NCBI GenBank assembly: GCA_000004695.1
Contig: CM000155.2
Span: forward strand, 512,001 to 576,000
Origin: Dictyostelium discoideum
Taxonomy: Eukaryota
Length of the DNA: 64,000 bases
Direction of reading: 5' to 3'
Under the pieces are notes generated by a model. It worked only from the letters and a program-made list of their open reading frames with translations, was not told the origin of the DNA and made no database searches. Below, piece after piece: positions 32,633-32,802 of this stretch. The stretch's first letter is position 1. Every line of letters starts with the position of its first letter. The position numbers were made by a program, and so were the translations under genes.

Positions 32633-32802
32633 TATAATGCCTTTGATTTTCAAACCCTAATTTATTTTTAGTAATTGATTTTTATTACTTTAAAAATATA
32701 ATAATAAAATAACCAATTAAAAAATTAGGGATGCAAATCAAAGGCATTATGTTATTGGTTATTTTATTATTATATTTTTAAAGTAATAAAAATCAATTAA
32801 TA
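32633..32802. repeat. Interleaved inverted repeats in the inter-PKS spacer. Block A (32633..32660) is repeated inverted at 32723..32749. Block B (core ~32670..32716) is repeated inverted at ~32753..32799.
   Basis: revcomp(attagggatgcaaatcaaaggcattat) is approximately ataatgcctttgattttcaaaccctaat, and the B core taattgatttttattactttaaaaatataataataaaataaccaat is an exact inverse complement. Read directly from the sequence. Confidence 0.85.

Follow-up and report, generated by a model that had tools for sequence, protein, structure and literature searches.

Interleaved inverted repeats between pks40 and pks41 of Dictyostelium discoideum: probable scar of a single template switch

The spacer between two polyketide synthase (PKS) genes of Dictyostelium discoideum contains an element in which two segments, A and B, are each followed by their own reverse complement in the order A-B-A'-B', each arm thus lying in the loop of the other pair. 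How such an arrangement arises, and whether it has anything to do with the PKS genes on either side, are the questions that this locus raises. An earlier note on this DNA had considered a cruciform or hairpin-forming site, a recombination hotspot relevant to the PKS duplication, or the remnant of a transposon terminus. In our analysis none of these accounts for the origin of the element, and the explanation that we favour, a copy of its own flanks, was not among them.

The element and its setting

The window (the whole stretch of DNA analysed, 64 kb) comes from chromosome 6 of D. discoideum AX4 and has a G+C content of ~20%, in a genome that is ~80% A+T. Both of its large minus-strand ORFs encode type I polyketide synthases whose best matches are all from Dictyostelium; their 90% cluster includes AX4 pks40 (DDB_G0291614) and pks41 (DDB_G0291684), to which the ORFs are identical save for an intron edge and the start codon. 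The element lies ~500-670 bp upstream of the pks40 ATG and ~1070 bp from the pks41 stop codon. We found no credible ORF in the spacer and no tRNA gene in the window, and an Rfam search of the spacer yielded no family above threshold. The sole Rfam match, to the plant miRNA hairpin MIR837, was rejected as a miRNA precursor, since its 27.4 bits are far below the gathering score of 117 and amount to a chance hairpin resemblance. Elsewhere in the window, G+C jumps from 8.5% at 46001-47000 to 36.6%, with a strong GC skew, at 47001-48000.

All four arms of the element were found in the order described in the earlier note and 1-6 nt from where it had placed them (Table 1). B and B' share an exact core which is perfect, as had been claimed, but is 46 nt long rather than ~47, and which lies in a longer pairing of 58 nt with 93% complementarity (32668-32725 and 32746-32803). 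A and A' are indeed imperfect: the 33-column alignment of 32634-32666 with 32719-32750 in reverse complement has 3 mismatches and 1 gap, and includes an exact core of 16 nt, ATAATGCCTTTGATTT, at 32634-32649 and 32735-32750. The A/A' and B/B' pairings are mutually exclusive in a nested fold, and the element is not a simple palindrome. At its right-hand end is the quasi-palindrome Y/X2, whose arms pair at 15 of 16 positions with 1 gap, and beyond this a T-rich tract, previously placed at 32820..32930, for which Tandem Repeats Finder gave somewhat wider limits and periods of 5, 12, 18 and 35.

Table 1. Coordinates of the element and its surroundings in the window
Feature	Position	Strand	Remarks
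Inter-PKS spacer	32132-33873		pks41 upstream of spacer, pks40 downstream (genes on minus strand)
A, ancestral left flank, ATAATGCCTTTGATTTTCAAACCCTAA	32634..32660	+	source of A'
j1 (TTT), left part of ancestral A/B' T-run junction	32661..32663	+	putative departure point (switch point 1)
88-nt insertion, reverse-complement copy of A-junction-B'	32664..32751	-	aligns to own joined flanks
Filler, 8 nt, ATTTTTAG	32664-32671		left end of 88-nt insertion
B core	32672-32717		within 88-nt insertion
Inverted junction TAAAAAA	32718-32724		within 88-nt insertion
A'	32725-32750		within 88-nt insertion; G at 32751 closes insertion
Ancestral right flank, j2 (TT) + B'	32752..32803	+	source of B; exact core of B' at 32754-32799
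Quasi-palindrome Y/X2, TAATAAAAATCAATTA / A / TAATTATTTTTATTA	32784..32815	.	arms 32784-32799 / 32801-32815, centre 32800
T-rich microsatellite-like tract, TTTTA / TTTTATTTTTTA units	32804..32929	+	Tandem Repeats Finder; context, outside duplication

Among exact inverted repeats with a separation of at most 400 bp, none in the 64-kb window is longer than the B core, which is also by a wide margin the least probable inverted repeat there. Its information content, calculated with the base composition of the window, is 69.5 bits against a search space of 24.6 bits, and none of the dinucleotide-preserving shuffles contained it. All other inverted repeats of at least 25 nt in the window (within 400 bp) were homopolymer-like, the second-longest exact one being purely homopolymeric, a ~33-nt T run facing an A run ~85 nt away (8994-9142). 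Two shorter inverted repeats near start codons are AT-rich yet not homopolymeric, namely one of 26 nt (41586-41611 / 41672-41697, exact) just upstream of the pks41 ATG in AX4, and one of 27 nt (9874-9900 / 9981-10007) in the corresponding locus of the assembly ACTFIR (L005), where the right arm spans the ATG.

The element is the most structured part of the spacer, as the earlier note had it, but the remainder is not featureless, since a 17-mer, GAAAAAGAGATTAAGAT, at 33056-33072 is unchanged in the diverged spacers of AX4 and three of the other assemblies described below (ACTFIW, ACTFIY and ACTFIZ). A second motif, ATACCCACAC at 32961-32970, is common to three of these four spacers. Both may be candidate cis-regulatory blocks in an otherwise fast-evolving, AT-rich sequence.

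The insert, its flanks and the alleles of other strains

When the 88-nt insert (32664-32751) was aligned in reverse complement with its own joined flanks (32634-32662 + 32751-32803), 78 of 84 positions were identical. The alignment score was 135, compared with 27.6 +/- 4.7 in 2000 shuffles (z = 22.7), and the control in direct orientation scored 33, which is background. In a five-row alignment of direct and inverted copies, the inverted copy runs as one unbroken block, A-TTTTTTA-ATTGG...ATCAATTA, with the same arrangement as in the ACTFIY allele, and the ancestral junction CCCTAA-TTTTTTA-ATTGG is retained in both. Because the inverted copy is unbroken, its source was contiguous when it was copied, which establishes the polarity (the insert being the derived state) independently of any outgroup. 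On these alignments, A-B-A'-B' is a unit U (A.B') interrupted by its own reverse complement, rc(U), to give A.[B.A'].B', and two interleaved pairs of inverted repeats are then the automatic outcome. The 8-nt filler ATTTTTAG is not accounted for by the inverted copy.

The locus was obtained from five other assemblies. ACTFIT (L001) has the PKS pair, a spacer 99.9% identical to that of the window and an identical element. ACTFIW (D. discoideum; L002) has the PKS pair and a spacer of 1337 bp, which holds A, B, A' and a B' of reduced length. ACTFIY (D. cf. discoideum; L003) also has the PKS pair, and in its spacer ATTGGTTATTTT, with which B' begins, comes immediately after A; B and A' are both missing (uninterrupted arrangement at L003 ~9491-9533). 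ACTFIZ (L004) has an internally deleted pks41 remnant and a pks40-like gene separated by a highly diverged spacer with no recognisable A or B, but alignment in this region is no better than with shuffles. ACTFIR (L005) has a single pks41-like PKS and lacks the pks41-pks40 spacer. Three alleles are informative, AX4, ACTFIW and ACTFIY, in all of which A keeps its position and orientation after a conserved ATC.TTTCT-(A)n anchor; the T-rich tract has a different length and unit in ACTFIW and in ACTFIY. The ACTFIW insert (82 nt) likewise copies its own flanks in reverse complement (z = 13.1), and against the uninterrupted ACTFIY allele the reverse-complement match has z = 9.0 for the AX4 insert and 12.7 for that of ACTFIW.

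In a gene-wide alignment, pks40 identity to AX4 is 96.4% for ACTFIW, 94.8% for ACTFIY and 93.7% for ACTFIZ, which makes ACTFIY and ACTFIZ outgroups to AX4 and ACTFIW. The distribution of alleles fits a single origin of the 88-nt insert before the split between AX4 and ACTFIW. The insert is younger than the pks40/pks41 duplication, since the tandem PKS pair is already present in ACTFIY, whose spacer lacks it; ACTFIZ, with its pks41 remnant and pks40-like gene, likewise has no recognisable insert. The AX4 and ACTFIY spacers are patchily alignable and fall below the filter of published high-confidence scans (flanks at least 95% identical, junctions fully explained); low flank identity and the filler make the breakpoints less precise but leave the evidence for an inverted copy unaffected.

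The proposal of a recombination hotspot for the PKS duplication fails on these alleles and on the extent of the paralogy. We compared the spacer with the regions upstream of pks41 and downstream of pks40, and found no paralogous similarity inside it; similarity between pks40 and pks41 stops at the CDS edges, 32103 and 33869, which discards the link to a duplication junction. We therefore reject a role of the element in mediating the duplication, off whose boundary it sits. Structural variation between strains, which the earlier note had suggested looking for, does exist at this site, with the insert present or absent among alleles and eroded in ACTFIW.

In ACTFIW, B has lost 7 nt and B' 26 nt, and the stem is cut to 21 bp. 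Long inverted repeats are unstable, and this erosion would match that known behaviour. In AX4, by contrast between its own arms, B and B' show 0 differences in 46 nt versus 4 in 33 for A and A', with a probability of ~0.003 to 0.05 under equal rates for both. Of the 46 nt of B, 4 are G/C, and several of the A-arm changes involve G or C; the contrast may reflect either later homogenisation or chance together with a lower rate of change at A/T sites than at the G/C sites of A.

The alleles differ in other respects as well. Copy number at the locus is polymorphic (window 24394-41580; L002-L005): the single PKS of ACTFIR is closest to ACTFIW pks41 (97.4%), and the internally deleted pks41 remnant of ACTFIZ, at L004 7117-7691, stands beside a full pks40-like gene. 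AX4 pks40 and pks41 are 98.7% identical in alignment columns 4000-5000, and the ACTFIY paralogues, 96.1% identical, are nearer each other than to their orthologues, which we read as signs of gene conversion between the pks40/pks41 paralogues. Downstream of pks40 (window 20000-24200; L002, L004 and L005 18000-27000) there is a variable number of related ORFs, whose copies are of ~450-600 aa and without Pfam hits, and the distance to a hexapeptide-repeat gene differs by strain, indicating further structural variation. Also in ACTFIY, the pks40 coding sequence ends in 134 nt (L003 17598-17731) that recur inverted at 17858-17991, 126 nt downstream, with 126 of 134 positions identical and an exact core of 94 nt; this repeat, absent downstream of pks40 in the window, is by its sequence a further local inverted duplication at this locus, independent of the first. 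A tRNA-like string that follows it was not confirmed by ARAGORN.

Route of origin and competing explanations

We consider it highly probable that one short-range template-switch mutation, of type 3-1-4-2, left the element as its scar, and take the scar to be selectively neutral. [quoted passage not shown] The AX4 element has this geometry: the source, 32634-32662 + 32751-32803, includes the insertion point 32663/32752 (order 3 < 1 ≤ 4 < 2), the inserted segment is a reverse complement, the 2→3 fragment is single and collinear, and the pre-event state is found in ACTFIY.

In the proposed sequence of events, the ancestral spacer would have been one contiguous stretch of A, the T-run junction and B'. 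The growing strand would have departed from its template inside the T-run (points 1 and 4 at 32663 and 32752) and primed again on the complementary strand immediately beyond B' (point 2, ~32799-32803), at the centre (32800) of the pre-existing quasi-palindrome Y/X2. It would then have copied ~84 nt backwards via B', the junction and A, ending at ~32634 (point 3), and returned to the site of departure to leave A.[B.A'].B'. Y/X2 would be older than the insertion, because B holds a copy of Y, and it was probably this quasi-palindrome together with the T-run that promoted the switch. The switch points and their microhomology are blurred by later substitutions and by a locally recurring TAATTGATTTTTATTA-like motif.

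A history in two steps, in which a second template switch or arm-to-arm correction in the AX4 lineage extended or re-perfected B/B' to exact arms of 46 nt, is the strongest competitor, although we judge it unlikely. It is suggested by the absence of differences between the B arms against the four between the A arms, and by the ACTFIW B/B' stem of only 21 nt; in yeast, moreover, two studies describe inverted-repeat arms homogenised and expanded by template switching (PMC8604942, PMC13100816). The inverted arm of ACTFIW, however, already holds the Y segment (AAAGTAATAAAAATAAATTA), which means that the direct strand carried Y when the first event took place and that ACTFIW lost it afterwards by deletion. 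Every B-arm difference can be assigned to the ACTFIW lineage, and with so few G/C positions in B slow divergence is plausible.

Somewhat less likely again is that the same product arose through a double-strand break in the T-run with repair synthesis primed on the wrong strand, by snap-back or microhomology-mediated repair synthesis or a polymerase-theta-type templated insertion. A pure insertion at one point with a short filler outside the copy, as found here, is typical of repair-associated templated insertions, but typical end-joining templated insertions are shorter than the ~84 nt copied in this case. Forks are prone to collapse, and DNA to break, at poly(dA:dT) tracts (PMC7954356). The sequence evidence fits break repair and the fork model equally well and gives no discrimination between them; our preference is for a switch at the replication fork, which would not involve repair synthesis.

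The hairpin potential raised in the earlier note was borne out by prediction: a single-stranded DNA fold of 32620-32815 gave the B/B' stem at -43.8 kcal/mol (z = -11). We regard it as quite improbable that this new 46-58-bp hairpin ~0.5 kb upstream of pks40 would act as a young regulatory or small-RNA element, or as a fragile site that adds to the structural polymorphism of the PKS locus; were the fragile-site reading true, the stem-eroding deletions of ACTFIW and the loss of pks40 and the spacer in ACTFIR would be its traces. Still less probable is a selected function, be it as a regulatory cruciform in the pks40 promoter or as the precursor of a hairpin RNA or small RNA. The strong predicted stem and its position upstream of the pks40 ATG would suit such a function, and new miRNA hairpins can come from template switching (10.1101/2023.04.19.537475). 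Yet the element is absent from ACTFIY, unrecognisable in ACTFIZ and degraded in ACTFIW, and in ACTFIR the whole spacer is missing; this lack of conservation argues against selection, as does the poor score of MIR837, the only Rfam match.

A MITE-like element or transposon-end remnant bounded by B/B' or A/A', another proposal of the earlier note, is very improbable. The element resembles MITEs in being short and AT-rich, and in its inverted repeats and hairpin potential, but no positive evidence for such an origin was found. Its repeats are interleaved and non-terminal, and its arms are copies of adjacent local sequence. The insert-free ACTFIY allele keeps A and the start of B', and the variable unit is B.A' (32664-32751) rather than a unit delimited by terminal inverted repeats. 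A target-site duplication is missing too, since the junctions, TTT on the left and TT on the right, belong to one T-run. Nor did the sequence covered reveal a family of copies: BLAST found no further A or B in the 64-kb window and four 27.7-kb loci from other strains (~175 kb), the only partial match being of 24 nt at 44201-44224, low-complexity and without wider homology. Weakest of all, and to be discounted even in a genome this rich in A+T, is a chance low-complexity match, as the earlier note had allowed for, or an assembly artefact, given the excess of 69.5 over 24.6 bits, the shuffles that never gave the B core, and the presence of the identical element in an independent assembly (ACTFIT) and of a diverged form in a third (ACTFIW).

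Comparison with known rearrangements and significance

The template switch that we favour shares with the 3-1-4-2 class a contiguous reverse-complement copy, a source that spans the points of departure and return, and two inverted repeats, as well as an AT-rich poly(dA:dT) context and a net gain in length. Events in great apes are enriched at poly(dA:dT) and AT-rich sequence, 65% of them lengthen the sequence, and their 2→3 fragment has a median of 12 nt and a maximum of 128 nt (Walker et al. 2021, PMC7954356). The fragment of ~84 nt differs from that median and is in the long tail, within the known range. It also differs from published switches in that the 1→4 distance is ~0, with no inverted spacer and a pure insertion, in its 8-nt filler, and in its host, a social amoeba; a limited search of the literature for template switches in Dictyostelium found nothing relevant.

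Two other processes offer partial parallels. Quasi-palindrome switching (Ripley 1982; Dutra & Lovett 2006), as outlined in PMC5453318, similarly ties the switch to a pre-existing imperfect palindrome, here Y/X2, but the classical mechanism only perfects an existing repeat, whereas here ~84 nt of new inverted sequence appeared. Fold-back inversions, ODIRA and inverted duplications also give an inverted copy, and involve switching between leading and lagging strands at short inverted repeats (PMC10766183, PMC11790251), but they span kilobases to megabases and alter gene copy number, in contrast to an intergenic insert of 88 nt.

The element adds a case to a recognised kind of mutation, and is very probably a clean and naturally polarised case of the rare template-switch class that produces two inverted repeats, with an unusually long fragment, in an extremely AT-rich genome, and with pre-event, post-event and partly decayed alleles all represented. 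It throws no light on the duplication or the function of the PKS genes. Its formation would illustrate how a single step, with no mobile element involved, can produce interleaved repeats of pseudoknot-like form. Where AT-rich intergenic DNA shows unusual patterns of inverted repeats, the first test should therefore be whether they are self-copies of their flanks. Taken together, the AX4 insert and the second inverted duplication in ACTFIY suggest that such events recur in the intergenic DNA of Dictyostelium.
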